Positions 125 through 55,329 of a DNA stretch of 64,000 nucleotides are shown piece by piece. The notes beneath the pieces were generated by a model. It was not told where the DNA came from and did no database searches. It worked only from the letters and a program-made list of their open reading frames with translations. Position numbers and translations under genes: made by a program. This DNA is from Chiloscyllium plagiosum (lineage: Eukaryota). Positions within the stretch are counted from its first letter, which is position 1; each line of letters starts with the position of its first letter. The stretch lies in NCBI RefSeq assembly GCF_004010195.1, contig NC_057752.1, positions 5,721,055 through 5,785,054 of the forward strand, written 5' to 3'.

Positions 125-613
125 TCAGAGGCACTCATGCAGCGTTTGTGTCGTTGTACAGTTTAAGCAGCTGACATGGCAGCACCAATGGAAAGTGCAG
201 TGACATCTCTCGGTGACCCTCTCGGTCAGGGTACGGAATCCCCTCCCACAGCACAGTAAGTCACAGCCGTCCAGACCTAGGGAGGTGTTATTGCAAACTC
301 GGCCTGTTGTACCTGTGGTGCCTATTTTGCTATTTGCAGTGCAGAAGTTGGGCGACTTCTCGAAGTAGACCAGGTCTTGGGGGGAGTGCGGCTTGTGAGC
401 GGGGTTCTCGGGCTCCAGGTGCCGCATATCCGCTCGGGAAGCCCGGTTACTGCCCTTGTTGCCGTAGATCACTCGGGAGGCTCCATCAAACCGGTCCTTC
501 AGCAAATTACCCACCGTCCGAAAGGTGGGGAGCCGCATCCAACAGGTTTTAACCGTGCAAGAGCCAGACATCCCATGGCACTTACACTCCTGTCTCATCT
601 CGGCATGGACTGT
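125..613 (-). CDS. wnt1: Wnt1 last coding exon (exon 4), 489 bp including stop
   Basis: Acceptor ttcacag at 614-620 is followed by [29 protein letters not shown]...[14 protein letters not shown]...HECL and TGA at 125-127. Contains the Wnt lipidation motif CKCHGxSGSC and the Wnt1-type linker ([17 protein letters not shown]). Phase-0 join to exon 3. Confidence 0.97.
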
Positions 614-854
614 CTGTGAAATTGATAAATAGTAATCAGTATCTGCTTGTTGGAAAGCAGGGCGCTCAGCATTCATGCTCCTCCAATGAGTGTTGCCGAA
701 CACAGACTCAGGTCTCAGCTGCTGTGAACTCAACAGCTCTCGATTTGGTGAGGAACTGTAGGCTGGACCCCCCCACAAGCGCAGATTGACGGAAACCTTA
801 CACGTGCAGAGCTGCAGTGGCATTTTAGTAGTGCATCCTCTAAACAGTGAAAGG

Positions 855-1150
855 AAACGTTTGCATTTATATAGCACCTTGCATGACCTCCGACGCCCCA
901 ATCTGCTTCGCTGCTCATTGAGTATTGACTTATGTCGCAATGGAAAGGCAGCAGCCAGTCTGGACAGGGAGAACTCCCCTCACTCTGCTTTGAAACAGTG
1001 TCACGGGAACACTGTTCCCCCTCTCAACTGGATGCAGGGTTTTGTTTTGACCTTGCTTGCAAAAGCTTGTACCTCTGACAATGCAGCATTCCACTAAAGT
1101 GTTTATCTCGATTAGATCTTTGGTGGGACTTGAGGCAGATGAAGTGTTAG
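855..1150 (-). mobile_element. Decayed Deu-domain SINE (SacSINE1/AmnSINE1-like)
   Basis: Minus strand ends in GCTATATAAATGCAAAC and contains GGGGAGTTCTCCC, resembling the remembered DeuSINE consensus. Same tail as the copy at 54400-54595. Confidence 0.55.
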
Positions 1151-1404
1151 GGTTCAGCCCTGTTTGGCAATCAGATGAAAATTCCAGTAAAACTTGGGTT
1201 ATTTTGGCGTTGATAGTAACTCATTCAAGCTGAAGAATTACACATTATTATAAGCTCTAGATGAGTTCAAAACAGAAACCAATCACAAATAATTCCTGTA
1301 TATTAATTCTTTCTATTGTACCTGGAGTAAATATGGAGATTATGTATGATATAACATTGGTTTGTGATGTAGTACTATTGATTATAATCATTCTTTTTAA
1401 AAAA

Positions 1405-1575
1405 ATTCATTCATGGGATGTGTGTGTCACTGACAATGTTGCCTATCCCTAATTGCCCTTGAACTGAGTGGCTTGCTCAGTCATTTCAAAGAGCAGTTAA
1501 GAGCCAACCATGTTGCTGCTATGTGTAGGCCATACCAGGTAAGAATAACAGATTTTCTTCCCATTTGTGAACCAG
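1405..1575. repeat. Short interspersed repeat (GCCC/TATCCCTAATTGCCCTT...GGCCAGACCAGGTAAG family)
   Basis: Related copies at about 39580-39850, 45370-45640, 47110-47280, 56690-56800 and 60250-60420. Confidence 0.6.
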
Positions 1576-1609
1576 TACTGCATTCAGTTTTGCTCACGAT
1601 ATTTTAGGA

Positions 1610-1960
1610 AGGATCTAATTACTCCAGAGAGGATGCAAAGAGATTTACCAGGATACTGCCTGAAGGGTCTGAGCTATGAGGAAAGATTGGATAATCTGGA
1701 CTTGTTTTCCTTGGAGTAGCTAAGATTGAGAGGGACCTGAGAGAAGTGTAGAAAATGATGAAGGGCATATGTAAGGTGGACCGGAAGACACTTTTTTCAT
1801 TTGTAGAGGGGTCAATAACAAGGGGCATGGATGTCAGGTAAGAGGTTGAAGGCTAAAAGGAGAGATTAGGAGACTGTCACCTGAAGATGTTGAGAGTCTG
1901 GAACTCACTGCCTGAAAGGGTGGTTGAGTCCGATATTTGTTGTCTAGCACGGACACAATG
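1610..1960 (+). mobile_element. Decayed CR1 LINE 3' fragment
   Basis: Degenerate version of the RFTRMLPG..SYEERL..LGLFSL block seen in the other CR1 copies. Confidence 0.7.
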
Positions 1961-2392
1961 GGCTGAATGTTGATGGGAACCAGATTTTGAAATGACAAAA
2001 AAAAGGATGGTTTCAGGATCACTATTACTGAGGCTAGCTTTCACTTCCAGGATTTTTTAATTTTTTTTTTTACACACTATCTGTTCAGAGTTGTTGTTAC
2101 ACTCCTCTGGAGAAGGTGGAGCTTAAACCTGGGGCTCCTGGCTTGGAGGTAGGGAAAGTACCACTGCATTACAAGAATCCCCAGAATTGTTTTATATAAA
2201 ACATAATATATATCTTGAAGTGCTTTCACTTGCAACTGAATGGCATTTTTCCCACCATTAAATACTTTGCTTCTATTATCTACCAGCAATAATCACCTGT
2301 GTTTCCAATTACTCAAATTATATGCAGTTCCTATTAATGGCAATGTAACAACATCAGAGATGAAGGATTCTCACTAGCCTCGTGACATTACC

Positions 2393-3130
2393 ATGACATG
2401 GCAGATGGAGTTCAATTTGGATAAATGCAAGGTATTGCATTTTGATACGACACACAGGAGCAGGACTTATACAGTTAATGCTAGGGCATTGGGTAGTGTT
2501 GTAGAACAAAGGGACCCAGGAATTCAGGTACATAATTCTTTGAAATTTGCATCAAATATAGACAAGCTAGTTAAAAAGGAATTTTGCATGCGTACCTTCA
2601 TTGCTCAGTTCTTTGAGTAGAGAAGTTCGGAAGTCATGTTGAGGTTGTGCAGGACGTTGGTGAGGCCTCTTCAGGATAAGTTTGTCCAGCTCTGGTCGCC
2701 CAGTTACAGGAATGATATTATTAATTTAGAGAGGGTTCAGAAAAGATTTACCGGGATGTTGCAGGGTATGGAAAGTTTGAGTTGTAAGGAAAGGCTGGAA
2801 AAGCTGGGACATTTTTCATTGGGGTGTAGGAGGTTGAGAGGTGACCTTATAGAGGTTTAAAATATCACAAGGGGTATAGATAGGGTTAATGGTAGGTACC
2901 TTTTCCCTCAGGTGGGGGACTTTCAAGACTATGGGCCATATTTTTAAGGTGAGAGGAGAGATATTTAAAAAAGACATGAGAGCAATTGTTTTTATACAGA
3001 GGGTGATTTGCATGTAGAATGAACTTCCTGAGAAAGTGGTGGATGCGGGTACAGTTACAACGTTGAGAAGACATTTAGATAAGTGCATGAATAGGAAAAG
3101 TTTGGAGGGATATGGGCTGGAAGGATGGAC
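2393..3130 (+). mobile_element. CR1-type LINE 3' end (5'-truncated)
   Basis: ORF2 C-terminal peptides WQMEFNLDKCKVLHF and LERVQKRFTGML...RLRGDLIEV, with stops. Confidence 0.9.
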
Positions 3131-30255: not shown

Positions 30256-30521
30256 CAGTCTGCCCGCCTCGTTATTGTGCAGGTTGGTCAGATAGCGCAG
30301 ATCCCGGCCCCTTTCGCTTGAGTCCACGAACTCGCGGCCGAAGACGCGGCCGAAGTCGATGTTGTCGCTGCAGCCGCCCCAATGCCAGTCGAGCCCGCCC
30401 GGTCCCCGCCGCCGGTAGTCGCAGGTACACGACTCGATGGAGCCTTCGGAGCAGGAGCGGGACACGGAATGCGTTACCGCCGCGCTGGTCAGGGCGAAGA
30501 TAAAAGCGGTTTCTCTGCAAC
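30256..30521 (-). CDS. wnt1: Wnt1 coding exon 3 (266 bp)
   Basis: Acceptor ccctgcag and donor GTAATG. Encodes (G)[57 protein letters not shown]...HNNEAGRL. Phase 1 start, phase 0 end. Confidence 0.97.
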
Positions 30522-30914
30522 CTGCAGGGACAAGAAACCGGGAAAGAATTAAGAGGGAGGGATAGAGACTGAGAGAGATCCAGACACCGGACAGGGAGAG
30601 AGAGAGAGACCCCCCCCCCCCCCGGTAACCACACATCGGAGAGCCAAGTCTCTCCTCCGAAGGAATAGAAGGAGCGGTACAGACCCGAGTGCAGAAGCAG
30701 AGAGAGAGAGAAATTGAAGCAGTCCCACAGAAACACCCTCAGCCTGAAAGAGAGGGGCCGAGAAGGAACGGCACAGTGGGAGGCAAGGGCGTAAAGATAT
30801 AGAGTGAGAGACTGAGATTTGGAGACAGAGATAGCAAAACAAAAACAAAAGACACACAGGGATGGGGAGCATGAGATACTACATGTGCGAGAGAGAGAGA
30901 GCGGAACACGCACC

Positions 30915-33610
30915 GACATTCACACACCCACATTCAAACAGGTATTCACTTGTACACGCTCATCCTCACACACAATCTCTCACATAACACGCACCTATTC
31001 GCATATTCTTTCATGCGCATATTCACATGCTTAGTCTCTCATTCACATACTCTCTCACACGTTCGAACACACTCTCAGACACACGTGTGCACATCCACAT
31101 GCTCAGAGTCTCAAATATTCACACGCACTTCCTCAAACACATTCTCACACACAGACACATTCACACAGACACAGACACTCAGTGTCTCACACACATTCAC
31201 ACACACGCATTCAAACACACTCCCACAAACACATCTCTTCTCTCACACTCACTCTGTTGCAGTCTCTCATACATTCACACACTCTGTCACATGTATTCGC
31301 ACACACATTCCCACACACTCTCACTCATTGCAGATTCACTCCCTCACGCTTACGTTCAAACACTCACATTCATACATTCTCTCACACTCACACACACAAT
31401 CGCTTGCATTCACACACATATTGTCTCACACTTTCTCATGCACTCACTCTCACACACACTATCTCAGACACTCCTGTTCACTCTAACACACATTCATGTG
31501 GTCCATCTCACACAAGCACATTCTGTCTCTCTTACACACACACATTCATACAAGCACACATTCACCAACACACATGCACATAAACACGCATTCACGCATT
31601 CACTCACGCTCATCCTCTCACACACTCTCACGTGCGTGCATTCACACACACACTCTCACGTGCACATTCACACACATTCTCACACGTTCTCTCACGTGTA
31701 CATTCTCACGGGCTCTCTCACGTGCACATTCTCACATGCTCTCTCGTGCACATTCTCACACGCTCTCTCATGTGCACGCATTCACACACACTCTCTCGTG
31801 CCCATTCACACACACTCTCTCACATGCACGCATTCACACACACACTCTCATGTGTACATTCACACATGCTCTCTCGTGCACATTCACTCACCCTCTCTTA
31901 TGTGGACATTCTCACACGCTCTCTCACGTGCATGCATTCACACACTCGTGCACATTCACACACGCGCTCTCATGTGCACATTCACACACGCTCTCTCACG
32001 TGCACGCATTCACACACTCGTGCACATTCATACACGCTCTCTCATGTGCACATTCACACACGCTCTCTCGTGCACATTCTCACACGTTCTCTCGTGCACA
32101 TTCTCACAAGCTCTTGTGCACATTCACTCACGCTTTCTCACGTGCACGCATTCACACACACTCTGTCATGTGCACATTCACATGCTCTCTCATGTGCAAA
32201 TTCTCACACACACTCTCGTGCACATTCACGCACGCTCTCTCCCATGCACATTCACACACGCTCTCTCACGTGCACGCATTCACACATGCTCTCTCACGTG
32301 CACATTCACATGCTCAGCCTCAGACACATTCACACACTTTCTCAAACATTCAAACACACATTTAAACACACATTCAGTCATGCACACACACAAGCACACA
32401 CATGCACAGTCTCACACCTATTCACACGCACTCTCTAACATTCAAATACTGTACACATTCTCACACAGTCATGCACTTAGTCAGGCACTCATTCACACAA
32501 ACACATTTACACACGTGTACATTCATGCAAACACGCATTTGCACATACACACCTATAAACACACAATCACACACATGCTGACCCATTCACACCCTCTCTC
32601 ATGCATACATACACACCCATGCACATATTAATTTGCTCAATTTCACACCCATTCAGTCTTTGACACACACACATTGACACATTCAATCTCTCATGCGCAT
32701 TCATACCTACTATCTCACACACATTCACACACTTTTATGCACGCATTCACATGCTCAGTCTCACACACACTCTCACACATTCAAACACACATTTACACAC
32801 ACTCTCATACATTCACTTCCCCACACTCATTCACACATGCACATTCACATGCTCATACACACATTCAAACACTCATTGTCTCTCTCACACACAAATTTGT
32901 GCACACACCTATAAACATTCACACACAGTATCTCACACACTCATTCTGTCTCTCATATACATTCACACACACTCTCATAAGCACATATTCACTCATACTC
33001 TCACCTACATTCACACACACACACTCACATACATACATTCTCATACTCAGTCTCACGAACATTCACACATTCATACACACAAGCTCATTCTCGCTTTCTG
33101 GCACACATTCGCACAAACACATTCTTTCACACACAAGTTCATTCGCACATTCACACACACACTTAATCTCTCTCACATTCACACACTCACTCTCTCACAT
33201 GCATATGCACACATTCTGTCACACACATACCAATGCGTTCACTCCACAATCTCTTTCTCTCACATGCATATAGACACTCTATCATATTGGGGAGGCAATG
33301 GTCATGCACTCATTCATACACTCTCGCTTACTCTCACTCACTCACGCAGTCATTCTCTCAACATACTCTTTCTCTCACGCATACACAGTCACCCACTCTC
33401 TTTCACACACACTTTCTCTCACACAGATATACACACACACAGATACGCACACTCAAGCGTACATATACACACTCACGCAAACGGACCCCCTTTGTCTCAG
33501 ACGCTCACATACACTCATGCTCTCTCACATACAGTCACTTATATACTTACTCACCCACGTACACACACGCATGCACCCATTCACTCACTCGCTCAGACAT
33601 TCACTCCACA
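30915..33610. repeat. 2.7-kb degenerate (CA)/(CT) low-complexity block in Wnt1 intron 2
   Basis: Continuous cacaca/ctctca/cattca sequence. It is the source of the spurious His/Thr/Ser-rich ORFs. Confidence 0.95.
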
Positions 33611-34728
33611 TCAAATGCGAAGAACCTATTAGAGCGATGAAGACATGCGGAGGACACGGCGGTACGTCGAACTGTTGAGTAAACACAGCGAGAGTCATGT
33701 GTACAGCGAATTCGAGATAATGAGAGCGAACAGAGAGGCAGGGCGGGGAGAGGTGTCCAAAGGAAATAGGGAAAGACAGAGAGAGAAAGGTGCACACAAA
33801 AACCAGAACCACAGCAGAAAGCATCAGAACACCGGCGAGTAAAAAGAATACTGTTAGTTAAAATAGTTAAACGTAGGGAATGAGGAAGAGAACTAATTCA
33901 CTGGAGGAATATTTAAAAGAAACAAACTGGACATCGGCAAGGACTGATAGAATGGTCTCGAATGAGCTGCACATCAGCATTGAAACTGGTGGAACCATTC
34001 AGCCCCAAGCGAGATCAAGGTTAGTAACGCCGGTCCCTAACGTTCAGCACGCAATGGTTATCAGATCCTGTCATCGATTTAACACCGTGCCGCCCAGAGA
34101 AAGCAAATTCCAACCTTCGCCCGGCAGCTGAGATACAGTGTCAGGACAGAGGGGGATGGCTACCGTAGCGCAGACCGGCTGAATGCAGCCATTCAGCCCA
34201 ATAAAGATGCTGGCCCTAGTAAATACTCAGTGAGACAACAATAGACTAGCCTGTTACCTGTGTGCGAGTGTGTGTGTGTGCGTGTGTGTGGGGAGGGGGA
34301 GATTCTCCTCATGAAGAATCTCGGCCTGTGGTGAAGAGTTTGATTCCTCAATCCCAGCCGGCCTGGTAACCTGTCGAGCTGCGGCCTGTTGGATGCTGCC
34401 ACAGTTCGATACCTTTGCCTGGGCAGGCTGTTCTGCGGGGGGAGGGGGTGGGGGGAAATAGGCTAACTTGGCCGGGAATGGGTCCGGGACACTGTGTTCC
34501 ATGGGCTCTCAGTTCAATCCACCTTGGGTCGGCTGATTTCAGGTCGGAACTGACCAACACTAAACAGGGAACCTCATGAGGCTTTTTTTTTGTTTTATGT
34601 CTGCACATGGGCCCAATCTGATGGGTCAACGGGTCTATTTCGCCATCTGGACCTGGACTGGGCTACACTTGAGCTGGGAGGCATCGATTTGAAAGTGGCC
34701 TAGGTGCCCCTGGCCTGGCCGAGCCTAC

Positions 34729-34982
34729 CTCGGTTAACGATTTTGCCAAAGATGTTGGAGCTCTGGCTGGTTGGACAGTTCCAGCGTCGGTTGCGAAATT
34801 GCCACTTGCACTCCCTGATGGCGGACTGCACTCCCCCGGTGATGCTGTGCAGAATGCCCGGGTTCTGGCGAATCAGTTTCCGTTGCTTTCGACTCAGCAG
34901 CTGTAGGCTCGGGTCCAAAACCAGCTGGACGTACTTGGAGTCGGTCAGCAAGTTGGAGGAGGAAGCAATGTTTACAATGCCC
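34729..34982 (-). CDS. wnt1: Wnt1 coding exon 2 (254 bp)
   Basis: Acceptor tgtttcag and donor GTAGGC. Encodes [46 protein letters not shown]...[15 protein letters not shown]...FGKIVNR, which is diagnostic of Wnt1. Needs a phase-2 upstream exon. Confidence 0.97.
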
Positions 34983-35399
34983 CTGAAACACACACACACA
35001 AACAAAATAACAAAACGTGCAATTTGGAGAATGGTGCCCAGAAATAGACCCACTACTCGGATGGCATTGATAGAACTGCTCTCGCACCTGTCCCTGCTGC
35101 TGGTGGGCTCTTTCATTTGTTAAAGACACTTATTCGGGCTTATGTTCGAGTGGAGGGGGGTGGGGGCGGGAGTTGGGGGGTGGGTGGGTGGGTGGGTGAA
35201 CCCACCCCCCCGCCCAGTACAGACACGAATTCGATTGTGGAAAAGATGGCAAGTTTGTGTACAACCAGGTCTAGCCTTCGCCAATGAGTGCAGGGTGCCC
35301 TGATCACAGAAGTTTCATCACGGGATTTGCTGCCTTCTTATAAGTTTGTAGGACGAGCTTTTATTTGGGGTGGGGGGGGGGTGCTGTAAGTGGCGGACA

Positions 35400-36050
35400 A
35401 ACCTCCCAGTTTAGAGGAACAATGGCAGGAAGGGGACACATTCTTCCCCTATCGCCTGCGCGATCCGAGCCGAGAGCTGTCCATCAAAGTGTCTATCATC
35501 CGCTCGCTGGAAGACAGCCCATTCAAGCGGTTTAATGCCCATGGAAGCCAGCGAATCTGATTGTTCAAGTCCTTACCGGGACGGTCAACCAGCCGCTACT
35601 GTGTGTAGGAACGTGTCCGCAATTCTCCAGCAAATGGCCTCACTCCTTGCCTCGCAGGGGTCGGCATTTCTGTCAAGCGAACAGTGATGCTGTCTCATTC
35701 GCGGGGACCACTCTCTTCTCGCGGTGCTCCCTGAAGTCGCTTTTTCCAAACTGTGGCTCACACACACACTCGATGCGAGGGACGCCCGGAGCCCAGCACT
35801 GAAACCGCTCCTGACGCCTCCGTCGCCGTTTGCTCTTTATTTCGTTTTTCTTTCGCTTGCAAAGTGAAGTTGGCTGAAGGTGACTGTGAGTTTGTTGGGA
35901 GCTGTCACGGACCCAGCCAGCTTGCTTTCAAGCATCTGAGTGTGTGTTGCGCAGTGACAAACAAGCCGAGAAACTATTCCTCTCCCTCAGTCCCATAATA
36001 TCACGGCACAGCAGCTGAAGAGACTAGAATAGACATCGAAATATAATCGC
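35400..36050 (-). promoter_or_regulatory. CpG-rich candidate Wnt1 promoter / 5' region
   Basis: Non-repetitive, CpG-dense segment 0.4-1.1 kb upstream of exon 2, with a strong donor CCG|GTAAGG at 35577. TSS not determined. Confidence 0.4.
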
Positions 36051-36084
36051 CCACTTGATAAACTGGTCAACATTTTAAATATGT

Positions 36085-36190
36085 TCTAACCACCCCGTTC
36101 AGAGATGGTATAACACACCTCTGGATCAGGAAGTCTGGGTTCAAACCCCACCTGCTTCAGAGGTATGTACACTACCACTGTACCACAAGA
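36085..36190 (-). mobile_element. Short SINE-like repeat
   Basis: Minus TGGTACAGTGGTAGTGT..ACCTCTG head. Related copies on plus at about 40080-40180 and 48800-48890. Confidence 0.5.
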
Positions 36191-36569
36191 ACACACCTCC
36201 TGCCAACCCTGGAATAAGGGAATCATTGATTTTGGGTTGGTTTCTGGGATTTTCTCCAACGTTATGGGGCAGCGACTTTCACTGCTTCTCCAGTCTCCCT
36301 TCAAAGCAAGTGGCAACGTTTTAAACTCTCAATTTTCCGCTTTATTAAACCGCTCCCCCAACTCCCACCCCACCCCGCCCCTCAAAAACTGGGAAATTAC
36401 CTGAAGGTGGACCAGCTGGGCACGCTGTGAAAACGGCTCCTGTCGCGTCCTTAGAATCATTTCATGTACTAGAGATGGTGTCAATGTCAAAGCAACCGGA
36501 GCAGCCATCATCGTTTGGAAACGGTGTGAATTATCATCCATGGCGGCTACTATTTCAATGCAGTTGGAG

Positions 36570-36947
36570 GCACAAAAAAACTGCAGATGCTGGAATCCAA
36601 AAGAGACAGGCAGGAGGCTGGAAGAAAACTGCAAGCCAGGCAGCGTCAGGAGGTGGAGAAATTAGCGTTTCGGGTATAGCCCTTCTTCAGGAATCACTGA
36701 TTGTGACTTAAAAGTTCTGGGATTTGCATATTAACGAACCGAAACTAGCAAAAGCATTCTAAAAGATGAAAGACTCAATCTAAGTTTGTTTAATATATTT
36801 CAGTTGCATGGCACTGTAACCTTTTGCTAAACATTCTGTGTCTTATGGTCCTGCTCCACAGCCATCTGATGAAGGAGCAGCACCTCGAAAGCTAGTACAT
36901 CCAAATAAACCTGTTGGACTCTAACCTGGTGTTGTGTGATTTTTAAC
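36570..36947. mobile_element. Two Penelope-derived fragments in opposite orientation, each with a degenerate hammerhead motif
   Basis: Minus 36661-36693 reads CTGAAGA-A-GGG..CCC-GAAAC. Plus 36863-36897 reads CTGATGA..GAA-AGCT-A and is followed by the same tail as 38072-38121. Confidence 0.65.
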
Positions 36948-37642
36948 CGAGAAAAGGAAGAAACAAAGTATACTACCACTATTTGTCCAGTAGACCTGTT
37001 CTCAGATTAGCAATATGGGGTGATTTAAAAGATCGATATATTGTTGCTGAGGGGTTTGAAAATTGCCTCTTCAGACAAGTTGGGGGGTGTTCCTGATGAT
37101 GACTGTCCTTGGGATGGCGCTCTCGAGCCGTCAGAGCAACGGAGAGGACGCCGGGACCGTTTCCACCGGGGCCTTAGTTCAATGTGACATTGCTTCTTAC
37201 CCACGAGGAAAATGGCTTCAACGCTTGCCATTCCCGAGGCGTCAGAAGTGAAAGTGCGAGGCAACTTCAGATGATTGCAACGTCCTCAATCGGTAGAGTT
37301 TGACATGGCTCCAAAACCCGATACTCTCAAAGCAGCAGAAATATATTCAGCAACAAGGCGCAAACGATTTCCTTGTAGTCTGTGAAACACATCTTTAGTC
37401 TCGTTGGAATATTTAGAATAATATATAAAATTCACGTGCTGTTTTAATATATTGGCCGTAGCCTTGATAAACTAGAGTTAGTTTCACGTGTTTGGCATCC
37501 AGTCCGATTAGACTTTTCACCAATGAACAGTGATTTGTTTTTAGCACCATGCTGAGGTGTATCTGCTACATTTCCAGAGCGTGTGATGTTTTAGAAACGT
37601 TCGTGCGTTTTCAGAATCTGGCACAAGTATAAAGATTTATCC

Positions 37643-37852
37643 GAGCTGAAAATGTGTTGCTGGAAAAGCTCAGCAGATCAGGCAGCATCGAAGGAGCAGG
37701 AGAATCGACGTTTCGGGCATAAGCCCTTCTTCAGGAATGAAGGGCTCATGCCCGAAACGTCGATTCTCCTTCTCCTTGGATGCTGCCTGACCTGCTGCGC
37801 TTTTCTAGCAACACATTTTCAGCTCTGATCTCCAGCATCTGCAGTCCTCACT
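37643..37852. mobile_element. Palindromic Penelope-derived element
   Basis: About 90-nt inverted arms spanning 37643-37825. Intact core CTGAAGA..GAAACGTC on minus at 37707-37734. Flanking direct repeat TAAAGATTT at 37630 and 37857. Confidence 0.75.
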
Positions 37853-37899
37853 TCCTTAAAGATTTTCGATATGTTCAAACCCCAGTCTCTGTATCTCTA

Positions 37900-38121
37900 A
37901 CATGATGTGGCATGATTTGGAGATGCCGGTGTTGGACTGCGGGTGTACAAAGTTAAAAATCACACAACACCAGGTTATAATCCAACTGGTTTATTTGGAA
38001 GCACTCGCTTTCGGAGTGACGCTCCTTCATCACAACCACCTGATGAAGGAGCGACGCTCCGAAAGCTAGTGCTTCCAATTAAATCTGTTGGACTATAACC
38101 TGGTGTTGTGTGATTTTTAAC
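37900..38121. mobile_element. Palindromic Penelope-derived element (second family)
   Basis: About 80-nt inverted arms spanning 37952-38121 around a short spacer. Confidence 0.75.
38037..38071 (+). ncRNA. Minimal type-I hammerhead ribozyme motif
   Basis: CAC-CTGATGA-A-GGAGC-GAC-GCTCC-GAA-AGCT-A-GTG: perfect stems I and II, palindromic stem III, CUA triplet. Activity untested. Confidence 0.7.
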
Positions 38122-40979
38122 AATGAAGTGACATAAAATTCCTAGTCGCTTTTGCAAGTGTTCAAAATAGATTCCTTGAGCATTAGGAAATGATTTTGCT
38201 GAAGTAATCTGTTTATTTAGAGAAACGCAGTATTTAAAACGCACTCTGCATGAATTTGTGTGTGTATACAATAGACAATTCAGATCCTGAACTAGTCCCA
38301 GAAAAGATTTGTGTTCTACCTAATGACCTTTGTGAACACAACATGTCCGCCGCCAAGTGATAGATGAACCAATTGGAGTCTAATTATAATTTTTCTGACT
38401 CTTTGGCCATTGTTATGCACTCTCGGTGGTGAAGTTTCACATCACCCTGAAGGACATTCAGATATAACCCATACACGTGACAGTGCTAAAAAGCCCAAGG
38501 CACACATTTAAAATCCTTCAATAATTGGCAATGAGCACTGTTTCCCCATTTCGCTATCACTTGGCAGAAAGACCTCGGTAATGTCTTTGTCTATGGGGCG
38601 CTCCTGCGGTATAGTCCCTGGGAAAGTCCAATTCGCTTTCAGCCAGAACGTCCTTGGTGTGCAGCGCTCTGTTTATTGATGGCCCGCCCATTGTAGAGTG
38701 CGATTTAGAGATGGCATCTGATGCTATTTCCTGTACAAAGCGCTGCCGTATGCACATATAGTTTATTACTAAACATAAGGTATGATTTTGTGCTGCTGGA
38801 GAGTGATTTGGCTGCTGAGGAGTGGTCTCAAAGGGATACCTCGTCACATTCACAATCTGAATATGAATGCACAATTAGCTAATACCTTCCCGCTGATAGA
38901 ATATAATAAAGAATGATATCATATATAACACAATGTAATGGAAACTGCTGTAGTTTAATATACAATCTCATACAATATCCAGACAGCACACCCGTTGTCT
39001 TTCCAAGTGCTGCTGTAAATTCAAGGGCCGTCACCTCAGTAATCCCTTTAATGTTACGTGAGGTGGTTCTTGTCTTTCCTGTTAACAACAAATCTTGTAA
39101 ACTGCGCTTCGTATAACACGCTTTACGCTAAGGCAGTGTTACCTTGTCACCTGATACCTTGCTCCCTCCATGAGCCTGTCCCCACTGGGTACGATGGCTG
39201 TAGTTTCTTCGGCAGGTGGTCAACGTGATCTGCTCGAATACAATGGAGGGTCCCCTGTCACTTCACTAACATAACTCCGCATCTCCATTGATCTGGAGGA
39301 AAATAATAGTATTGGGCAGGCAATTGATGGATTGACAGTTCTCCTCGTTCTCTGCATGGGATTCAATTTGAATAAATTCGTCGACAAGTTTCAAAAAGGA
39401 TTAATAGCGCCAATAAAGCCAAGATTGAAGAATTATTGCCGAGTTCTGGCAGGCGGCTATATGTTGCATTATTATTGTAAAGAAGCACCCGTTCTGACGT
39501 GGTGCCTAGTGAGATGTGAGGGACAGATTTGCAGTTCGTGAACTGTTCCGAAGTTGCGCAGCGGCGTTGTTTGCGGATTTCTTTTGGGACGTGACTATCG
39601 CTGGCTGGGCCAGGATGAATTGCCCATCCTTCATTGCCCTTGAGAAAGTGGCGGTGAACTGCCTTGGTCAATCCGACTGAGCGCCTCTTTCGGAAGGCAA
39701 GTGAGGTTCAACCACGCAGCTGTGGGTCTGGAGTCACATGGAGGCCAGACTAGATGAGGATAGCAGATTTCCGTACCGAAGGGGCATCAGTGAACTAGAT
39801 GAGTTTTCAGTTACACCAATTCCTTAGTTTTATGGTCACCATTGCTAATATAAAAGTCGTTCCAAAGTTGTTAAATCTCAATTGAGTTTAAATTTCTGAG
39901 ATCTTTGATTTTGAAAGTTGAACACATGTCTCTGAATCATTAGTCCAGGCTTCTGGCTTAGTAGTCCGGTGACATAACCACTATTACTTTACCCCGAATT
40001 GATGGGTGCTGCTAGCTCAGTCGCAATTCTCATCTTTATGGACTATTGCATACAATTGTAATCGCTTTGGACTTCTTGTAGCATAGTATGGTAATAGTGT
40101 CCCTACCTCAGAGTCAGAACACACGGACACAAGACCCTCCAGAGGTGTATTCTAGCACGCCTGAGCAGCTTGATTAAAAACATTTAAATCTGAAATAAGA
40201 CTGCTCCCAGACCTATGGATAATACATGTGCTGATGGCAGCCCAGCGTTGTCCTCTGTCAAGCTACTGAGTAGCCCTTGTTCACAGCCTACTGGAGGACT
40301 GTGACCCATCATGCTGTGTTCAGGGTTAGATGGGGATAAGGAATTTCAGAGGGGAAAAGGGCCCGGATTTTGGGAACATTGATCACTTTCCTCTAAATTG
40401 CTCAAGTTATTTCTCAGTCCTTCTCTCTATTTATCATCGGAATCTGAAATGGGTTGGCGCAATCATGCACATGAACCGATTTACTGTTCAATTCCTTTGT
40501 CAGATGTCAGCTCCTCAAAGATCCGGGTTCAAACTCGCTTCCCCAAAAAAGCCCTCAGACATGAGCGCATCGTGGGCGCTAAAGCCTCGTGGACTGACGG
40601 TGGGATTTATTGGAGCGAGATTCTCTTCATAAAACAGGGGGGAAAGTAAACTGAGGAACGGAAGAAAACAGGCTTTTGAAATACAGTCAAGACAAATGAA
40701 GAAAGGGGACTGGGAGATATATAAGACGTCAATTGATGTATCGGTCTCGATATGCGCATTCCATAGTGAAGATATATTACGTGATGGATGTTAAACATGT
40801 TGCTTGGGTGTTGAATGGTTACTGGTCTCAGTCTTGTGTATCATTCCGAAACTGGATGCTCGAAATGACGGCCCTTCACCTGCTTCTCAAGCGGCACTGG
40901 AAGTGGGACAGGCGCCGTATTACCCTGGGAGGGGAGGGGGTGTCATTGTGGGAGCTGTGGTTTTATTCCTAATGCCCAT

Positions 40980-41208
40980 TTGAGGAGTCGGGATTCTCCT
41001 TCCTTCAGTCCCAGCCAGTCGGACACACACAAGTCAAAAGAGAGAGAGAGAGAGAGAGAGAGAAGCGAAATGAAACCCCCTCCCTCCCCCTCCCCTCTCC
41101 CAGTCCTTGCGGGAGATGGAAATCCGCGGGTGAACTGAGCGGAACAGGAGAGGGAGGGAGGGAAGGAAGGGGTTCCAGTGCCTCTCTCTGAGCTGGACAG
41201 ACACCGAG
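40980..41208 (+). promoter_or_regulatory. Wnt6 proximal promoter / 5' UTR region with (AG)n
   Basis: GC-rich sequence directly upstream of the Wnt6 ATG, with an (AG)n tract at 41039-41062. TSS not determined. Confidence 0.5.
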
Positions 41209-41285
41209 ATGTGGCCTTTCGCTGCAGCTCAGCTCCGAGTTTTCTTCTGTCTTCTGTACCCCGCTAACATCATCAGCCTGTGGTG
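41209..41285 (+). CDS. wnt6: Wnt6 coding exon 1 (signal peptide, 77 bp)
   Basis: Not in the ORF track. ATG at 41209 gives MWPFAAAQLRVFFCLLYPANIISLW, then TG and a strong GTGAGT donor. The phase-2 join to exon 2 gives LWWAVGSPLVMDP, the typical Wnt6 N-terminus. Confidence 0.93.
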
Positions 41286-41404
41286 GTGAGTCGGGTCGGG
41301 TCTCGGGCTCCCGAGGATACTTGTCGGACAAGGCGTTGTTCGGGCTGGTGGTGGTGTGGGGGGGGCTTGAGGGGACTTGTAACCGAGGAGGCAGTGGTGT
41401 TTTC

Positions 41405-41845
41405 AGAAGGCAGAGACGGAAAGCAGGAGAGAGCGAGGGGAGAGAGAAGAGAGTGAGTCAGGGACAGGAGGGAGAGGAGCAGATGAGAAACAGGGCGAGA
41501 AGAAAGAGGGAGAGGAGAGAGCGAGGAGGGGGAAAGAGTACAGTGGGGAGCGGAGAAAGNNGGGAGAGAGTGTGTGGGGAGAGAGAAGAGCGGAGATAGT
41601 GATTAAGAAGACGGTGTGATAGAGTAAATGTGAAGAAAGGATGATAGAGGGAGTGAGGAGAGAATATGATAGAGGGAATGAGAAGGGGCGGTCATAGAAG
41701 GAGTATTGAGAGAGGATAATAGAGAAAGTGAGGAGGGAGGATGATGGAGAAAGTGAGGAGAGAATATAACAGAGAGATTGAGGAGGGAGAGATAGAGGGA
41801 GTGAGGAGAGAGTGCATTAGAGAGTGGAGCAGAAGCAAGATGAAC
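41405..41845. repeat. Purine-rich (GA) low-complexity tract containing an NN ambiguity at 41560-41561
   Basis: Directly visible in the sequence. Confidence 0.9.
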
Positions 41846-42167
41846 TGTGAGGGTGCAGGGGCTCCATTGTGTTGACAGCCTTTGCTTACTCTCATTTGCA
41901 AACAGCACCTGTATCTGGGAAATCCCCAGATAGTTGCTCTTTCCCTGGCTCAGGGCCCGCTGTTTCGAAGCGAACGAGCGCACAAATAGCAGAACCGCTT
42001 CATCAGTCGGATTCCTAACTCCTCGCCGTTTATTCATCACGCTCTGTGTACTTGGGAGATAAGGCTTCCCCGTCTCATTCCTGTACAAATTGCCTCGGAG
42101 TTCAATCAGTTGCGTTTTCTTGTACACTTCAACCGCGGTTGTGGCACAACCCCTCTGAAAACTCAAC

Positions 42168-43860
42168 GGGTGTATGTGTGCCTGAGAACATGAATGAGTG
42201 TGTGTGAGAGAGAGACTATATCCGAGTGTATGCGTGTAAGAGAGTGTCTCCATGTGTGTGTGAGAGAGAGAGAGAGAGAGTGTTTCCGAGAGTATGTTTG
42301 TGTGAGAATGTGTGAACGTGTGGGCCTCCGACAGTGTGCTTGTGTGAGAGTGTGTCTCCGAGTCTGTCTGTGTTTCTCTAAGTGTGTGTTTATGTGAAAA
42401 TGTGAGTGTGTGGGAGAGTATGCCTGACTGTGAGAGTGTATCTCTGAATGTGCGTTTGTGTGAGAATGCGAGTATGTCTGTTTTTGAACGTGTGAGGATG
42501 TGCATGAGTGTACAAGGGAGTATATCTGCACATTAGCGAGATTGTGAGAATCTGAGTGCGTGTGTGAGAATCTGTGTGTGAGATTGTGTAGAAGTGTGTG
42601 TGTGTCAATGTGTAAGTTTGAGTGTGGTAGAGTGTAACAATGTGTGTCAGTATGTGCCTGTGAGAGTTTATGGGAGTATGTGAATGAGTGTGAGTGAAGT
42701 CAGTGGGTTTGTCTCTGTGAGTGAGAGTGTGTATCTGTGTGTGCGAGAGTGTGCATGAGTATCAGTGTTTGTCAGTATGAGAGAGGGAGAGTTAGAGTGT
42801 GGCTGGTTGTGGGTGTAGGTGTCGGTGTGTGAATATGTGCATGTAGTGTGAGTACGTCTGTGTGTGTATGTGTGTAGTAGTGACTGTATGAGTCCCACTG
42901 AGTGAATGTGTGTGTATGTGTTTCACTGGACATGTATGAGTCTGAGTGTTTATGGGAGTGTGTGAGTGTGCGTGTATGTGTCAGTGGGAGTCAGTGTGTG
43001 TGTCAGTGAGGGTGTGTCTGTATGAATGTATGTGCCATTGAGTGTGTGTATGCACGTGTGTGTCACTGTTTGGTATTGTATGTCTGTGAATGTATGTTTC
43101 TGTATAAATATATGTGTTAATATGTGTGTCAGTGAGTGTATGTCTGCACGAATGTATACATCAGTGTGTGTTTCAGTGATTGTGTTTGGGTGTGTTAGAG
43201 TGTGACTCTGTGTGTCAGTGATGACTGAGAGTTCATGGGAGTGTGCCTATGAATGAATGTGAATGAAGTCAATGGGTTTGTGTTCTGAGTGAGAGTCAGT
43301 GCATGAGTGTGTGTCAGTAAGTGTATGTGTGTTTGTGTAAGTGGGTATTTGTCAGTTTGTGTGTGTGTGTGAATGCCACTGATTGTGTGAGACTATGCGT
43401 GAGTATCGGTGTTTGTCAGTATGAGACGGAGAGTATGAGCATGAATGTATATGTTAGTGTGTGTCTGTATAAATGTATGTATCAGTGTGTGTTTGTGTAT
43501 GTGTCAGTCTGTGTCCGTCTGTATGAGTATGTGTCAGTGTGCGTGTGTCACTGTATCAGTGAGTGCATCAGTAATGTTAGTGTGTATCAATGTGAGTGTT
43601 AGTGAGTTAGAATGTTAATGTCAGTGTCAGTGTGATGTATGTGAATGTGAGTACATATGTGTGTATCAATGTGTGTGTTTGTCAGTGAATGTGTGTCAGT
43701 CTGTGTGTCAGTTTGTGTCTGTGAGTGAATGTGAACGTGTCAGTGTGTCAGTGAGCGTGTGTGTGAATGCCAGTGCGTTAGCGTGTGTTTCTGTGTGAGT
43801 GAATGTGGATTAAGGGTAAATATGTGTCAGTGAATAAGTGTGTCAGTGAAATGTGTGTGG
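42168..43860. repeat. 1.7-kb degenerate (GT)/(GA) block in Wnt6 intron 1
   Basis: Continuous gtgtgt/gagtgt/gtcagt sequence ending about 60 bp before the exon 2 acceptor. Confidence 0.95.
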
Positions 43861-43918
43861 AAGGTCTCGCTTTATTCTGAAGTAACGCTGTGCCGCTGGT
43901 TTGACCCCCGCGCTGCAG

Positions 43919-44139
43919 GGCGGTAGGAAGCCCCTTGGTCATGGATCCCAACAGCATCTGCAGGAAAGCCAAGCGGCTGGCAGGCAGGCAGGCTGAACTG
44001 TGTCAGACTCAACCGGAGATCGTCAGCGAGGTGGCGAAGGGAGCCCGCCTTGGGATCCGGGAATGCCAGCACCAGTTCCGATTCCGCAAGTGGAACTGCA
44101 CCACTCACAAGAAATACTTCAGCAAGATCCTGCAACAAG
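43919..44139 (+). CDS. wnt6: Wnt6 coding exon 2 (221 bp)
   Basis: Acceptor gctgcag and donor GTAGAG. Encodes AVGSPLVMDPNSICRKAKRLAGRQAELCQ...ECQHQFRFRKWNCTTHKKYFSKILQQ. Confidence 0.97.
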
Positions 44140-46176: not shown

Positions 46177-46478
46177 ATATCAGGGAGACTGCCTTCGTTT
46201 CCGCTGTCACCTCGGCTGGGGTGCTCTACACGGTGAGCCAGGCCTGCAGCATGGGCGAGCTGCTGCAGTGCGGGTGTGAGCGCACCCTGAACCGGGTGCC
46301 ACTGCCCCGCTCGCCCACTCCTGGCACCGAGGCCACAGCCTGGGAGTGGGGCGGATGCGGAGATGACGTGGAGTTCGGCTACGCCAAGTCCAAGCAGTTC
46401 ATGGATGCCGAGAGGAAGCAAGGACAGAACGACATCAAATCCTTGATTAACCTGCACAATAACGAGGCTGGGCGCTTG
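46177..46478 (+). CDS. wnt6: Wnt6 coding exon 3 (302 bp)
   Basis: Pyrimidine tract plus caccag acceptor, donor GTAGGT. Encodes (D)IRETAFV...QACSMGELLQCGC...WEWGGCGDDVEFGY...HNNEAGRL. Confidence 0.97.
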
Positions 46479-51600: not shown

Positions 51601-54399
51601 TTTAACTGTTTACCTGTTCAAATCCTGATGAAATATTTCAACAAAGTACACTTTCAATGAAGCAAATTCCAATTACAGGTATAGCAAACCTAGATAATCT
51701 TATTGCAAAATGCATAGTAGACCTGAATAGAAACAATTGAACGATAGATTGAAGTTGCTGATGGACCTGATATGTAGATTGAGACACAGAAAATTCATTG
51801 TCTCAGGTCAGTGCCCATGTCTGCAAAATGAGCCAACATAGAGAATTTATGATTCTCTAGAGTACTGAATACTGGTACAGTAATTTGATATAAATATTCG
51901 CAATGTTGGACTTTAAAAAGAGCCGATTGCCTGCACTGTGCTGAAGATATGTGTTTATCTGGAGCAATCTTTTGCTGTCAACTCTGAGTGTGTGGTTGTT
52001 AAGGTAGTTAACTCATGTGGGGGTCAGAATTCCTTTGGGCGCAACGTGTCGTAAAGTTTTGAGTGTGTTCGTGAAGATTTCCTTTATTCAGTCCCAACGA
52101 ATCACAAAAATATTTTTGGAGTTCATAACTTTAGAACATTAACACATATTCAGCCATGCAAATATTTTGGACATTTAATTGCAATCTTTTGGACTACAGA
52201 AAAAGTATATTTTAGAAAAGAACAAATAACATGCTTAAAACACGTGTTTTCAAATACATTTTCATGCATTCTCTTAAAACACGATCTTTTAGAACACATT
52301 TTGCAGAACACTGAACACATTATTTTACCACATACGTTTAAGAACCTGTAAACCTTTTTAGGACATGTGAACATTATTTTAGAACAAATCATTTTGAAAT
52401 ATTCATTTTTCACATGAGCAAAAGTGTTCTTTTAAGAGTGTGCCATTCCTTCCACATTATATTCGGCATTCACAGAAAGCGATCACAGAATGTAACATTT
52501 CAGTACTTAAGAATACAGTATTATGGTTTGAGACTAGTTTCTGTGGAAAGTACAGAAACATCTCTTAGAGAACTTGTTCTTTCAGCACATACATTTGCAT
52601 TTGCAATAATTGCCAGAGGGAATTTTTGAAATTTTAAAATGTTCTTGTACAATGGAATTTCACAGGAAATAGAGTTCCGATTACTGCGTATAACGGCAGC
52701 AGAACAAAAAGCCTAGATTCATTATATGTGCATTTATTATTCATTATAATAATACATTTATAATTTTACTGTAAATAGCAAGTCAAGAAAATATCTGTTT
52801 GCAATGGTACCAACACATAGCATTCATCCCTCTCTCACACTGTATGCAACATTTTTGAAACGTTAATTTGAATGTGTATGAACAGTTACATGTACTGATA
52901 GTTGGTCATGGTAAGTCAAGTGTAGTCTTCAGGTAAAATTTGGTTAGAGACTAGGGGTAACTGACCAGGAATTCCAGAAATAGTTAAATCTCCGTTTTAA
53001 AGTGATCAATCTACTTGATTTATATTTTCCCATTATAAGCTCCTATGACCTCATTTATAATGAAAACTGCCTGAATAAACTTGTCACGAATTAATTACAC
53101 CTTCCTATAAGTTGTTTATTGTCACACTTTTTCATTGAACAGTAGCATGAAGTAGTGGAAGAAATTTCAGGTAGATTAAATATCTGACAGGGTAGCATGG
53201 ACGTTGCTTTTGTATCTTTCCACTCTTCCCTTACAGAATTGTGTGAAGTAATGGGAAATATTCCCCGGCTGATTAACAATCTGACAGGCCTAACTTGAGT
53301 GCTTCTTCTGTGTCCTTGGCCCCATTTTGTTAAACCATGCCCGCCTCCACCTCACCCCCCCACCCCGAGAAAGCACTGCAGCACTACCACTGGCAGGAGG
53401 GTGTCATTACAGCTTGACCGGTTCAGATTGACAATTTCCACAACAAATCTTGACATTTAGGAGACTTAATTGAAAAAAAAGTTGGAAACGCAGAGTGATG
53501 ATCAAAAGTAGTTTTTAGATGTAGCAGAATTAGAGTATGTGTGTCATTGAACCAAGAGAGGCGAGTGTAATTCAGTTCCATTGTAAAATCATTCTTATTT
53601 TTGTACTTTATTATTAAATCCATTGTATACATCGACACTAGGATTATCAATATCCCATTCCCCCACCAATGATGCCACTGGAGTATATTTACTGATGGGG
53701 ATAGGAAGAGGGCACAGCTACAGTGACAAACATATAAGAGTAGCCTTCACTGCAAACATAGACAGAAGAATTTATATGAAAATCCTCAGTTACAACAATC
53801 ATAATTGCAATAGTGAGTTCAACTCGAAGTTACTTCATTGGCCGAAATAAGTGTTTAATATGTGTTAATCCAAATATTTGAGTGAGTTTGAATTTCTGAA
53901 TAGATATGCTTCTGTCTCGAAGTACATGTGCTTGTATTTATCAGTGGCACATGTTGAGGAACCAATTAGGGCCCTTAAAAGCGGGAGTGTATTATTTGCT
54001 ATTTAAATGGAAGGTCACACCTGGTCCAAACTTTCTGTCACTGGGTAGCAATATTCTCAACTATATAGTCAAGTCTCCTGTGTTTACAAAACAAATTCTG
54101 AAGTCCCACCGGTTGCCTAAGAGCATATTGATAATGATGCAGAGACCAACTGCCTCAGTGTAGTCGAACTGGATTGTTCTTTTGAATTAACACTGACACA
54201 TTAGCAAAGCAGAAGTGTCGTTTGCACCAGGATGTTTTTATTCAACATAAACATAATAAATGAAACACAAACCCTGAGAGTGTTAATTTTTTATTCACCT
54301 TTTACAAGATCACTTTTTTTTAAGCTAACTTTTTACATAGTTTTACATGATAGAAAAGGTTACAGGAGCCTTGTGTGGAACACAAATACCATCAACCTG

Positions 54400-54595
54400 T
54401 TGGAGCAGAATCAACAAAATAGACTATTTGTTCCTTATGCCATTGCTTGGTGTGGGGAGTGTGCCGTGTGCAAAGCTTGCTGCCATGTTTTCTACATCAC
54501 TACAGTGACTACACTTCAAAACGTGAGAGGCTGTCAAACACTTTGAGATGGCCAGAAAAAAAATGAAAGCTGCTATATAAATGCGAGTCTTCATT
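54400..54595 (+). mobile_element. Deu-domain SINE 3' half
   Basis: CTACATCACTACAGTGACTACACTTCAAAA and GCTATATAAATGCGAGTCTT tail. Confidence 0.65.
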
Positions 54596-54867
54596 TAATT
54601 GTTAGCATAACCATCTGTTGCATTTCCCCTCTCACGTACAAGACTAGCATATAAAACGTATCTCATTTCAATGGAATGTCATTCTTCATAGCAAGCGCAA
54701 AGTCAATTAATTGCTGCATAAGATCAATTTCTTGTACAGATCAAACTTCTGTCTCCTTCCAGTCAACCAGTTCAATGCGGTTTTTGTGTGTTGTTTCAAT
54801 GACAATGTTCATGAAATATATTGTTAAAGTCTTGTTTCTCTCTCTCCGCTATCGCCTTTAACTTCAG

Positions 54868-55329
54868 ATGATTAAGAATTACATGCGAACTGAGTGTAAA
54901 TGCCATGGCCTGTCCGGCTCCTGTGCTGTTAAGACTTGCTGGAAGAAAATGCCCCATTTCCGCGAGGTTGGCGACCGCCTATTGGACCGCTTCAATGGCG
55001 CCTTCAAGGTGATGGGCGGCAATGATGGGAAGACATTGATCCCAGTGGGGCACAACATCAAACAGCCAGATAAACAGGACCTGATTTACTCTGCCGAATC
55101 CCCCGATTTCTGCCTCCCCAACAGGCGCACTGGTTCTCCAGGGACGCGGGGCAGGGTGTGCAATGGCACAGCTATGGATGTCAGTGGCTGTGATCTCCTG
55201 TGCTGTGGCCGGGGGCACCGGGAGGAGACAGTGAGTTTCCAGGAAAACTGCCAATGTCGCTTCCATTGGTGCTGTGTGGTGCAGTGCAGACAATGCGCTG
55301 TCCGAAAAGAACTCAGCATCTGCATGTAG
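54868..55329 (+). CDS. wnt6: Wnt6 last coding exon (exon 4, 462 bp including stop)
   Basis: Acceptor acttcag. Encodes MIKNYMRTECKCHGLSGSC...GNDGKTLIP...CRFHWCCVVQC...ELSICM, then TAG. Total CDS 77+221+302+462 = 1062 nt = 353 aa. Confidence 0.97.
   Translation: MIKNYMRTECKCHGLSGSCAVKTCWKKMPHFREVGDRLLDRFNGAFKVMGGNDGKTLIPVGHNIKQPDKQDLIYSAESPDFCLPNRRTGSPGTRGRVCNGTAMDVSGCDLLCCGRGHREETVSFQENCQCRFHWCCVVQCRQCAVRKELSICM

Follow-up and report, generated by a model that had tools for sequence, protein, structure and literature searches.

Wnt6b lies head-to-head with Wnt1 in Chiloscyllium plagiosum and is probably a retained copy from the early vertebrate genome duplications

Results and Discussion

The window analysed here, a stretch of 64,000 nucleotides from the Chiloscyllium plagiosum assembly (contig NC_057752.1), holds an intact Wnt6 gene that diverges head-to-head from Wnt1. 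We are highly confident that this gene is the known Wnt6b, likely one copy from the early vertebrate genome duplications and likely flanked by Wnt1 and Wnt10b on the X chromosome of elasmobranchs. Earlier publications already cover Wnt6b, including its standing as a retained ohnologue and its linkage to Wnt1 and Wnt10b on the X: wnt6b is described as a "previously characterized" retained ohnologue in PMC10115646, which cites Kuraku 2021 (Dev Biol 477:262) for it, and Wnt1, -6b and -10b have been placed on the X in five elasmobranchs, a shared X that also carries the Hox C cluster (bioRxiv 2025.03.13.642935). We equate the clade of the window gene with the wnt6b of Kuraku 2021 by shared name and linkage. 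The term "wnt6" is absent from those supplements of PMC10115646 that are searchable, and the first half of bioRxiv 2025.07.04.663182 does not discuss the paralogue. Added here are a coelacanth copy in the Wnt6b clade and linkage group, the likelihood that shark Wnt6b is not the teleost wnt6b, and the absence of Wnt1 coding exon 1 from this assembly.

A complete Wnt6b and an incomplete Wnt1

The features of the window are as follows.

125..613, minus strand: Wnt1 coding exon 4 (last), stop codon included; 94% to Mustelus Wnt1, E=6e-105; AG acceptor
30256..30521, minus strand: Wnt1 coding exon 3; tblastn E=1e-54; GT-AG borders
34729..34982, minus strand: Wnt1 coding exon 2; tblastn E=2e-47; GT-AG borders
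35200..35201, no strand: junction with sequence absent from the window (at least about 0.2 kb); data from runs X1, X2 and X11
35201..41208, no strand: interval that separates the divergent starts of Wnt1 and Wnt6b; several high-copy repeats; X1 and X11 contigs
41209..41285, plus strand: Wnt6b coding exon 1; ATG, hydrophobic N-terminus; joined coding sequence 353/353 identical to P0127
43919..44139, plus strand: Wnt6b coding exon 2; 100% to P0127 residues 27-99; GT-AG
46177..46478, plus strand: Wnt6b coding exon 3; tblastn E=9e-64; GT-AG
54868..55329, plus strand: Wnt6b coding exon 4 with stop codon; 100% to the representative of the Hemiscyllium "Wnt-6-like" cluster; AG acceptor

The four coding exons of Wnt6b, all with GT-AG borders and with intron phases of 2, 1 and 0, join into a protein of 353 aa with a single terminal stop that is identical, at 353/353 residues, to the C. 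plagiosum "Wnt-6-like" record XP_043538074.1 (P0127). Exon 4 is 100% identical to that record as against about 48-50% to Wnt1; among the 120 matches listed for it (of 424), all carry PF00110 and the named best ones are Wnt-6 or Wnt-6-like. The protein has 24 cysteines past residue 26 and a CKCHG motif at residue 210, the serine of which has a role in lipid attachment in Wnt proteins. Full length, a hydrophobic N-terminus, conserved cysteines, the CKCHG motif and Wnt6 proteins as nearest relatives all mark it as a member of the Wnt6 subfamily. Wnt ligands are secreted and lipid-modified and act through Frizzled/LRP, and from this knowledge of the family the product of Wnt6b is predicted to be an ordinary ligand of the same kind. 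Across both Wnt genes of the window, the tblastn E-values of single exons range from 1e-13 to 1e-105, which excludes chance matches for the Wnt1 and Wnt6 exons. An Rfam scan returned 0 matches, and in RNA run X21 (about 2/100 of the run sampled) there was coverage only over repeats.

Wnt1 exons 2-4 encode 335 aa with one terminal stop, 332/335 of them identical to C. punctatum Wnt1. The signal-peptide exon, present in 13/15 of the chondrichthyan Wnt1 records listed, has no match in the six frames of the window, either by tblastn or by local alignment with six Wnt1 N-termini. Exon 1 words of 10 residues from three sharks reach background scores only against 34,986-41,200, as does a scan for ATG-to-donor hydrophobic exons that might serve as Wnt1 exon 1. 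The Wnt1 coding sequence is incomplete in this assembly, which lacks coding exon 1. A sequence-only reading of this DNA had described a minus-strand Wnt1 and a complete plus-strand Wnt6 diverging from one another: both genes are present and Wnt6 is complete, but Wnt1 is without its signal-peptide exon.

Wnt6b and canonical Wnt6 fall into separate clades

Our maximum likelihood tree of 44 proteins (200 bootstrap trees) included 18 Wnt6 rows from bony vertebrates other than coelacanth, one of them a mammal. Fifteen chondrichthyan Wnt6-like rows from sharks, rays and chimaera form a clade with the coelacanth (97/89), and a branch separates these 16 rows from all others in 98% of the 200 bootstrap trees. 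Shark and chimaera Wnt6, by contrast, group with bony-vertebrate Wnt6 in a canonical clade (87/83) that takes in 18/18 of the non-coelacanth bony-vertebrate proteins sampled. The window protein shares 89.8% of its residues with horn shark Wnt-6-like versus 77.1% with horn shark Wnt-6, and the corresponding figures for the two chimaera genes are 85.6% versus 77.3%. The coelacanth protein carries residues of the Wnt6-like clade (e.g. L137, M201 and G300) that differ in canonical Wnt6 and in both lamprey rows; at diagnostic columns 5, 152, 183, 266 and 325 it has the canonical residue, and its branch is long (0.58).

Compared with canonical vertebrate WNT6, then, the window gene is of equal length and the same subfamily, at 77-78% identity to the Wnt6 of horn shark, chimaera, Xenopus and paddlefish, but it belongs to a separate clade, differs at about 15 diagnostic columns and sits on a different chromosome (Wnt10a 0/10). 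Horn shark and chimaera each have a canonical Wnt6 recorded separately; the Chiloscyllium records listed, from clusters given with at most 15 members each, include no canonical Wnt6. Set beside the Wnt6b of cartilaginous fishes (RefSeq "protein Wnt-6-like"), the window gene itself is no different, with an identical protein, the same clade and the same chromosome as Wnt1 and Wnt10b; the one difference is that this assembly is without Wnt1 coding exon 1.

Wnt6b shares a chromosome with Wnt1 and Wnt10b

We tallied linkage in 20 species from named protein records on equal-sized contigs, so that a shared contig means the same chromosome or scaffold rather than adjacency or orientation. Wnt6-like shares a contig with Wnt1 in 13/13 species and with Wnt10b in 19/19, as against 0/10 for Wnt10a and 0/2 for canonical Wnt6; Wnt1 is found with Wnt10b in 12/12 species and with Wnt10a in 0/6. 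The shark Wnt1 cluster contributed the 15 members listed of its 26. The tally leaves out Scyliorhinus torazame, for which no Wnt6-like is listed, Pristiophorus, for which contig size data are absent, and two partial records: an additional Wnt1 of the whale shark from a scaffold of 70 kb, and a Wnt10 of the basking shark from one of 16.8 kb. Wnt10b and Wnt10a, which are paralogous partners, mark two putatively paralogous chromosomes (HoxC- versus HoxD-linked); the window carries no genes flanking the Wnt pair. Near-consecutive accessions in C. punctatum (GCC20379/20381/20382) and Narcine (XP_069761757/756/755) suggest the gene order Wnt1-Wnt6b-Wnt10b. In the coelacanth, Wnt6-like and Wnt10b belong to the same contig tally group and have consecutive UniProt ids (H3BIA9, H3BIB0). 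The window itself contains no Wnt10 exon, the best of three shark Wnt10 proteins reaching E=2.8 (tblastn) right of 55,330 (to 64,000). Of two options that the sequence-only reading had left open, the tree, the co-location tally and the separate canonical Wnt6 of horn shark and chimaera favour the first, namely that this Wnt6 is the paralogue belonging to the Wnt1-Wnt10b chromosome.

Might the duplication instead have been limited to cartilaginous fishes, with the new copy moved beside Wnt1 and the coelacanth Wnt6-like gene arising in a separate event? The coelacanth sits on a long branch, and an AU test leaves monophyly of both chondrichthyan Wnt6 types unrejected: a tree that unites the 17 chondrichthyan Wnt6 rows in a single clade has an lnL 9.69 lower (p=0.245). 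Given this result and the 87/83 of the canonical clade, the tree by itself does not date the duplication. However, the free tree does place the coelacanth with the Wnt6-like clade, and its Wnt6-like gene is co-located with Wnt10b under consecutive ids. Two independent insertions into a slot known from the lamprey, amphioxus and Daphnia clusters would moreover be unparsimonious, and wnt6b is listed as a retained ohnologue (PMC10115646). We therefore regard a duplication confined to cartilaginous fishes as very unlikely.

Sequence is probably missing between Wnt1 and Wnt6b

Run X1 matches the window with 0 mismatches over 34,600-35,200, at which point one of its contigs extends for 211 letters that are absent from the window; the next contig begins at 35,201, preceded by 23 unmatched letters. 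Run X2 has zero depth in the bin 35,054-35,280, and contigs of run X11 break at 35,160/35,226. The junction between 35,200 and 35,201 is surrounded by G-rich low-complexity sequence. The deletion call here draws on run X1 only, and what the extra letters contain is something we infer. Because X1 has extra DNA at this position, an assembly gap is indicated as the source of the missing Wnt1 exon: the junction is likely the site of the signal-peptide exon, the absence of which is most likely due to a short local assembly deletion and not to a lesion in the gene. Wnt1 exon 2 and the Wnt6 ATG are 6,227 bp apart, in keeping with the 6.2 kb put forward by the sequence-only reading for this assembly; with at least 211 letters missing at the junction, that figure is likely an underestimate and the real spacing likely exceeds 6.2 kb.

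The remainder of the divergent interval (35201..41208) is tiled by X1 and X11 contigs that break at very high-depth repeats at about 36.4-37.1, 37.55-38.2 and 39.6-39.8 kb, and no contig of the DNA runs spans 35-41 kb whole. This lack of a spanning contig, the departure of the window from X1 at the junction and the missing Wnt1 exon are what one might expect if Wnt1 and Wnt6 were neighbours only because unrelated pieces had been wrongly joined in the assembly, at about 35.2 kb. Yet Wnt1 and Wnt6-like are co-located in every one of the 13 species that list both, with adjacent accessions in several, and a join exactly at the site of exon 1 fits dropout of a G-rich tract better than it fits a chance fusion that happened to recreate a conserved neighbourhood. 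A misjoin thus strikes us as highly improbable.

A further alternative takes the absence of exon 1 at face value, as a real deletion allele of the assembled animal, whose product either has no usual signal peptide or starts at an in-frame ATG at 35,116. This ATG lies 45 codons upstream of exon 2 and precedes a hydrophobic stretch, and the exon is absent from the window. However, the peptide upstream of exon 2 resembles 0/15 of the Wnt1 records compared, exons 2-4 show no damage and match the sister species at 99% identity, X1 has extra DNA exactly there, and three of three DNA runs break at this point, as expected of a G-rich tract that is hard to sequence. We consider a deletion allele extremely unlikely. 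A Wnt1 exon 1 dropped from the assembly would mislead gene models as well as studies of the shared upstream region.

The other option of the sequence-only reading, a duplicate Wnt1 on the chromosome of Wnt6 and Wnt10a, is barely conceivable, and no evidence in its favour was found. The Wnt1 tree is compatible with vertebrate Wnt1 orthology but too poorly resolved among jawed vertebrates to be informative on this point. Against the option, Wnt1 tallies with Wnt10b in all 12 species and with Wnt10a in none of six, the window Wnt1 is nearly identical (332/335) to the C. punctatum record, there is a single chondrichthyan Wnt1 cluster among the 120 matches listed of 1,212, and the adjoining Wnt6 is not of the canonical type.

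An evolutionary scenario for the Wnt1-Wnt6-Wnt10 block

The history we favour is one in which Wnt6b stems from the early vertebrate genome duplications. An ancestral Wnt1-Wnt6-Wnt10 block would have been duplicated, after which one copy would have been reduced to Wnt6 and Wnt10a by the loss of Wnt1; the human WNT6-WNT10A pair lies at 2q35 (PMC11968203). The other copy would have stayed whole in sharks, rays, chimaera and coelacanth, where the three-gene block is likely retained, and would have lost Wnt6 in the bony vertebrates sampled. Wnt6b appears to have been lost in mammals and, judging by the 18 sampled proteins, the loss looks wider than mammals. Because the coelacanth retains Wnt6b, at least two separate losses would be needed, one in ray-finned fishes and one in the tetrapod line. 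The outcome would be a clean case of reciprocal gene loss following genome duplication, with a shark chromosome that still displays the arrangement of three genes ancestral to the mammalian WNT1-WNT10B pair.

One might go further and propose that this is the only three-gene block left in jawed vertebrates, that a control region common to the genes, within the short divergent interval, holds it together and that its halved dose in males aids sex-specific development. On the elasmobranch X, which is poorly dosage-compensated, it is the Wnt1, Wnt6b and Wnt10b ligands whose male dose would be halved. We think this a long shot. For twelve X-linked signalling genes in stage-31 gonads, only Acvr1b and Igfbp6, and no Wnt, are named as significantly female-biased (bioRxiv 2025.03.13.642935).

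The name wnt6b is common to the shark gene and to one of the zebrafish-style teleost pair wnt6a/wnt6b. All teleost rows (9/9), including the divergent wnt6a type, nonetheless fall in the canonical clade, with shark Wnt6b outside it; the teleost 6a/6b labels were partly assigned in this analysis. From these sequences, the genes called wnt6b in sharks and in teleosts are unlikely to be orthologues. The most doubtful teleost row, a Paramormyrops "Wnt-6-like" protein, was considered separately as a ray-finned Wnt6b and set aside: it has a long branch, and a tree that forces it to join the shark clade is weakly rejected (p=0.038).

Clusters of this kind are known well beyond jawed vertebrates, as Wnt9-Wnt1-Wnt6-Wnt10 in Daphnia and other invertebrates (PMC3003278) and as Wnt9-Wnt1-Wnt6 in amphioxus and lamprey (PMC6060547). 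The shark pair is head-to-head, whereas the published orientation of Wnt6 in invertebrate clusters varies by lineage, differing for example between Drosophila and Daphnia (PMC3003278), so that head-to-head need not be the ancestral state. In the invertebrate, amphioxus and lamprey clusters Wnt1 and Wnt6 are direct neighbours, just as they are in the shark, where Wnt10 shares their chromosome and is likely the adjacent gene.

A complete Wnt6 diverges from Wnt1

Six-frame translation and splice-site checks reveal two divergent Wnt genes in the window, Wnt1 and a Wnt6-type gene that we call Wnt6b (RefSeq 'protein Wnt-6-like'):

41209-41285, 43919-44139, 46177-46478, 54868-55329, plus strand: Wnt6b coding exons, with GT-AG borders
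34982-34729, 30521-30256, 613-125, minus strand: the three Wnt1 exons found, together 335 residues

The joined Wnt6b exons encode a 353-residue protein with no internal stops and with 24 cysteines and the CKCHG motif intact. It matches the C. plagiosum record 'protein Wnt-6-like' (P0127) at 353/353 positions, and the records of C. punctatum and Hemiscyllium at 350-351. By family, we take the product to be a secreted, lipid-modified ligand for Frizzled/LRP receptors. Wnt1 matches its C. punctatum counterpart at 332 of 335 residues. An intact Wnt6-type gene adjoins Wnt1, with 6,227 bp between Wnt1 exon 2 and the Wnt6 start codon; the two divergent genes may share control. The sequence-only reading had described such a pair, and both the divergence and the completeness of Wnt6 stand, whereas Wnt1 is present in the window without its first coding exon. 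No Wnt10 exon was found right of 55,330 within the window (best E=2.8).

Wnt6b probably belongs to the Wnt1-Wnt10b cluster

The sequence-only reading offered two accounts: this Wnt6 is the paralogue of the Wnt1-Wnt10b cluster, or this Wnt1 is a second copy on the Wnt6-Wnt10a chromosome. For 20 species we took as a chromosome fingerprint the length of the longest contig carrying each named record; a shared fingerprint means the same chromosome and says nothing about adjacency or strand. The first account is supported: Wnt6-like shares its fingerprint with Wnt1 in 13/13 species and with Wnt10b in 19/19, but with Wnt10a in 0/10 and with canonical Wnt6 (that of the WNT6-WNT10A pair) in 0/2. The C. 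plagiosum records of Wnt6-like and Wnt10b lie on one 16.4 Mb contig and that of Wnt10a on a 118 Mb contig; in the coelacanth, Wnt6-like and Wnt10b share a 19.3 Mb contig. Because of this tally, in which Wnt1 accompanies Wnt10b in 12/12 species and Wnt10a in 0/6, the account that puts this Wnt1, as an extra copy, on the chromosome of Wnt10a is rejected and a chance misjoin of Wnt1 and Wnt6b is unlikely.

Accession order (C. punctatum GCC20379, 20381 and 20382; Narcine XP_069761757, 756 and 755) suggests the gene order Wnt1-Wnt6b-Wnt10b. Within GCC20379.1-GCC20382.1, one accession, GCC20380, falls between Wnt1 and Wnt6-like; no additional gene was noticed in the Wnt1-Wnt6b interval of the window.

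Age of the Wnt6 duplication

Wnt6b is closer to horn shark Wnt-6-like than to horn shark Wnt-6 (89.8% vs 77.1% identity), and the two chimaera genes divide similarly (85.6% vs 77.3%). In a maximum-likelihood tree of 44 proteins, jawed-vertebrate Wnt6 forms two groups, one (97/89) uniting the window gene with 14 other chondrichthyan 'Wnt-6-like' rows and coelacanth 'Wnt-6-like', the other (87/83, unstarred) placing the Wnt6 of horn shark and of chimaera together with the remaining 18 bony-vertebrate rows. The coelacanth row (P0151 / P0062) has a long terminal branch (0.58 vs a median of 0.1), which suggests relaxed selection on this copy, and carries canonical residues at some diagnostic columns and group-one residues at others (e.g. 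L137, M201, G300). Since an AU test leaves a clade that unites all 17 chondrichthyan rows unrejected (p=0.245), and given this long branch with its mixed residues, the tree favours, short of proof, a duplication that would predate the shark/bony-fish split.

Each of the nine teleost rows lies in the canonical group; a tree with the Paramormyrops row placed in the shark group instead is weakly rejected (p=0.038). Lampreys and hagfish (P0044, P0064, P0060, P0071) have two Wnt6 types each, which pair across both groups of animals; all four rows cluster together, so the tree assigns neither type to Wnt6 or to Wnt6b.

An ancestral Wnt1-Wnt6-Wnt10 block was probably copied by early vertebrate genome duplication. 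One copy would have lost Wnt1, yielding WNT6-WNT10A; the other would have retained all three genes in cartilaginous fishes and coelacanth and, in bony vertebrates, lost Wnt6 at least twice, yielding WNT1-WNT10B (human pairs after PMC11968203).

Relation to published work

Wnt6b, its ohnologue status and its linkage have all been described before. As far as the accessible portions of these sources go, the little skate genome paper (PMC10115646) and its preprint call wnt6b a retained ancestral ohnologue, 'previously characterized', citing Kuraku 2021. In five elasmobranchs the X chromosomes have Wnt1, -6b and -10b among their shared genes and carry the Hox C cluster; dosage compensation there is incomplete and, of twelve signalling genes, only Acvr1b and Igfbp6 are named as significantly female-biased (bioRxiv 10.1101/2025.03.13.642935). 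The C. plagiosum X is homologous to chicken chromosome 33, with Wnt unmentioned in the accessible text (PMC11406177). Amphioxus and lamprey have Wnt9-Wnt1-Wnt6 clusters (PMC6060547), and Daphnia has Wnt9-Wnt1-Wnt6-Wnt10, in variable orientation (PMC3003278). The available parts of PMC12897036 and bioRxiv 2025.07.04.663182 hold nothing further. The accessible literature yielded no statement of the shark head-to-head orientation and no tree placement of the coelacanth gene; figures, supplements or Kuraku 2021 may well contain both.

The missing Wnt1 exon

A conserved signal peptide of ~31 residues opens 13/15 chondrichthyan Wnt1 records among those listed, but none of the window's six frames matches it. 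We compared the interval 34,600-41,400 with four sequencing runs (DNA runs X1, X2 and X11; RNA run X21), taking record coordinates to run in the direction of the contig itself, as implied by record 16 of X2. X1 shows 0 differences across 34,600-35,200, after which its contig extends for 211 letters absent from the window; the next X1 contig begins at 35,201, preceded by 23 unmatched letters. X2 has zero depth in the bin holding the 35,200|35,201 junction, contig breaks in X11 fall at 35,160 and 35,226, and the surrounding sequence is G-rich and of low complexity. The simplest reading, and a likely one, is that Wnt1 coding exon 1 was lost through a short assembly deletion of at least ~0.2 kb at 35,200-35,201, a reading based on one run (X1), whose extra letters would presumably include that exon. 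No contig spans the 35-41 kb interval whole, the remaining breaks falling at high-copy repeats.

An in-frame intronic ATG at 35,116 could mislead Wnt1 gene models. A non-repetitive minus-strand stretch at 35576-35950, found with few changes in X11 too, has a strong donor-like site at its end, near 35,577, and may represent the promoter or an untranslated first exon of Wnt1. At 39354, X1 and X2 contigs alike carry 11 bases that the window lacks, through either polymorphism or another small slip in the assembly.

Repeats

Long degenerate CA/TG-rich tracts occupy 30875-33640 (Wnt1 intron 2), including ~25 copies of a 26-bp unit at 31,673-32,310, and 41600-43750 (Wnt6b intron 1); the long stop-free frames that result, with much His, Thr and Ser, are unlikely to be genes. 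Within Wnt6b intron 1, a purine-rich tract contains two N bases at 41560-41561. Wnt1 intron 3 measures 29.6 kb, and 614-30255, like 55400-64000, holds many broken frames, presumably pieces of retroelement reverse transcriptase or endonuclease.
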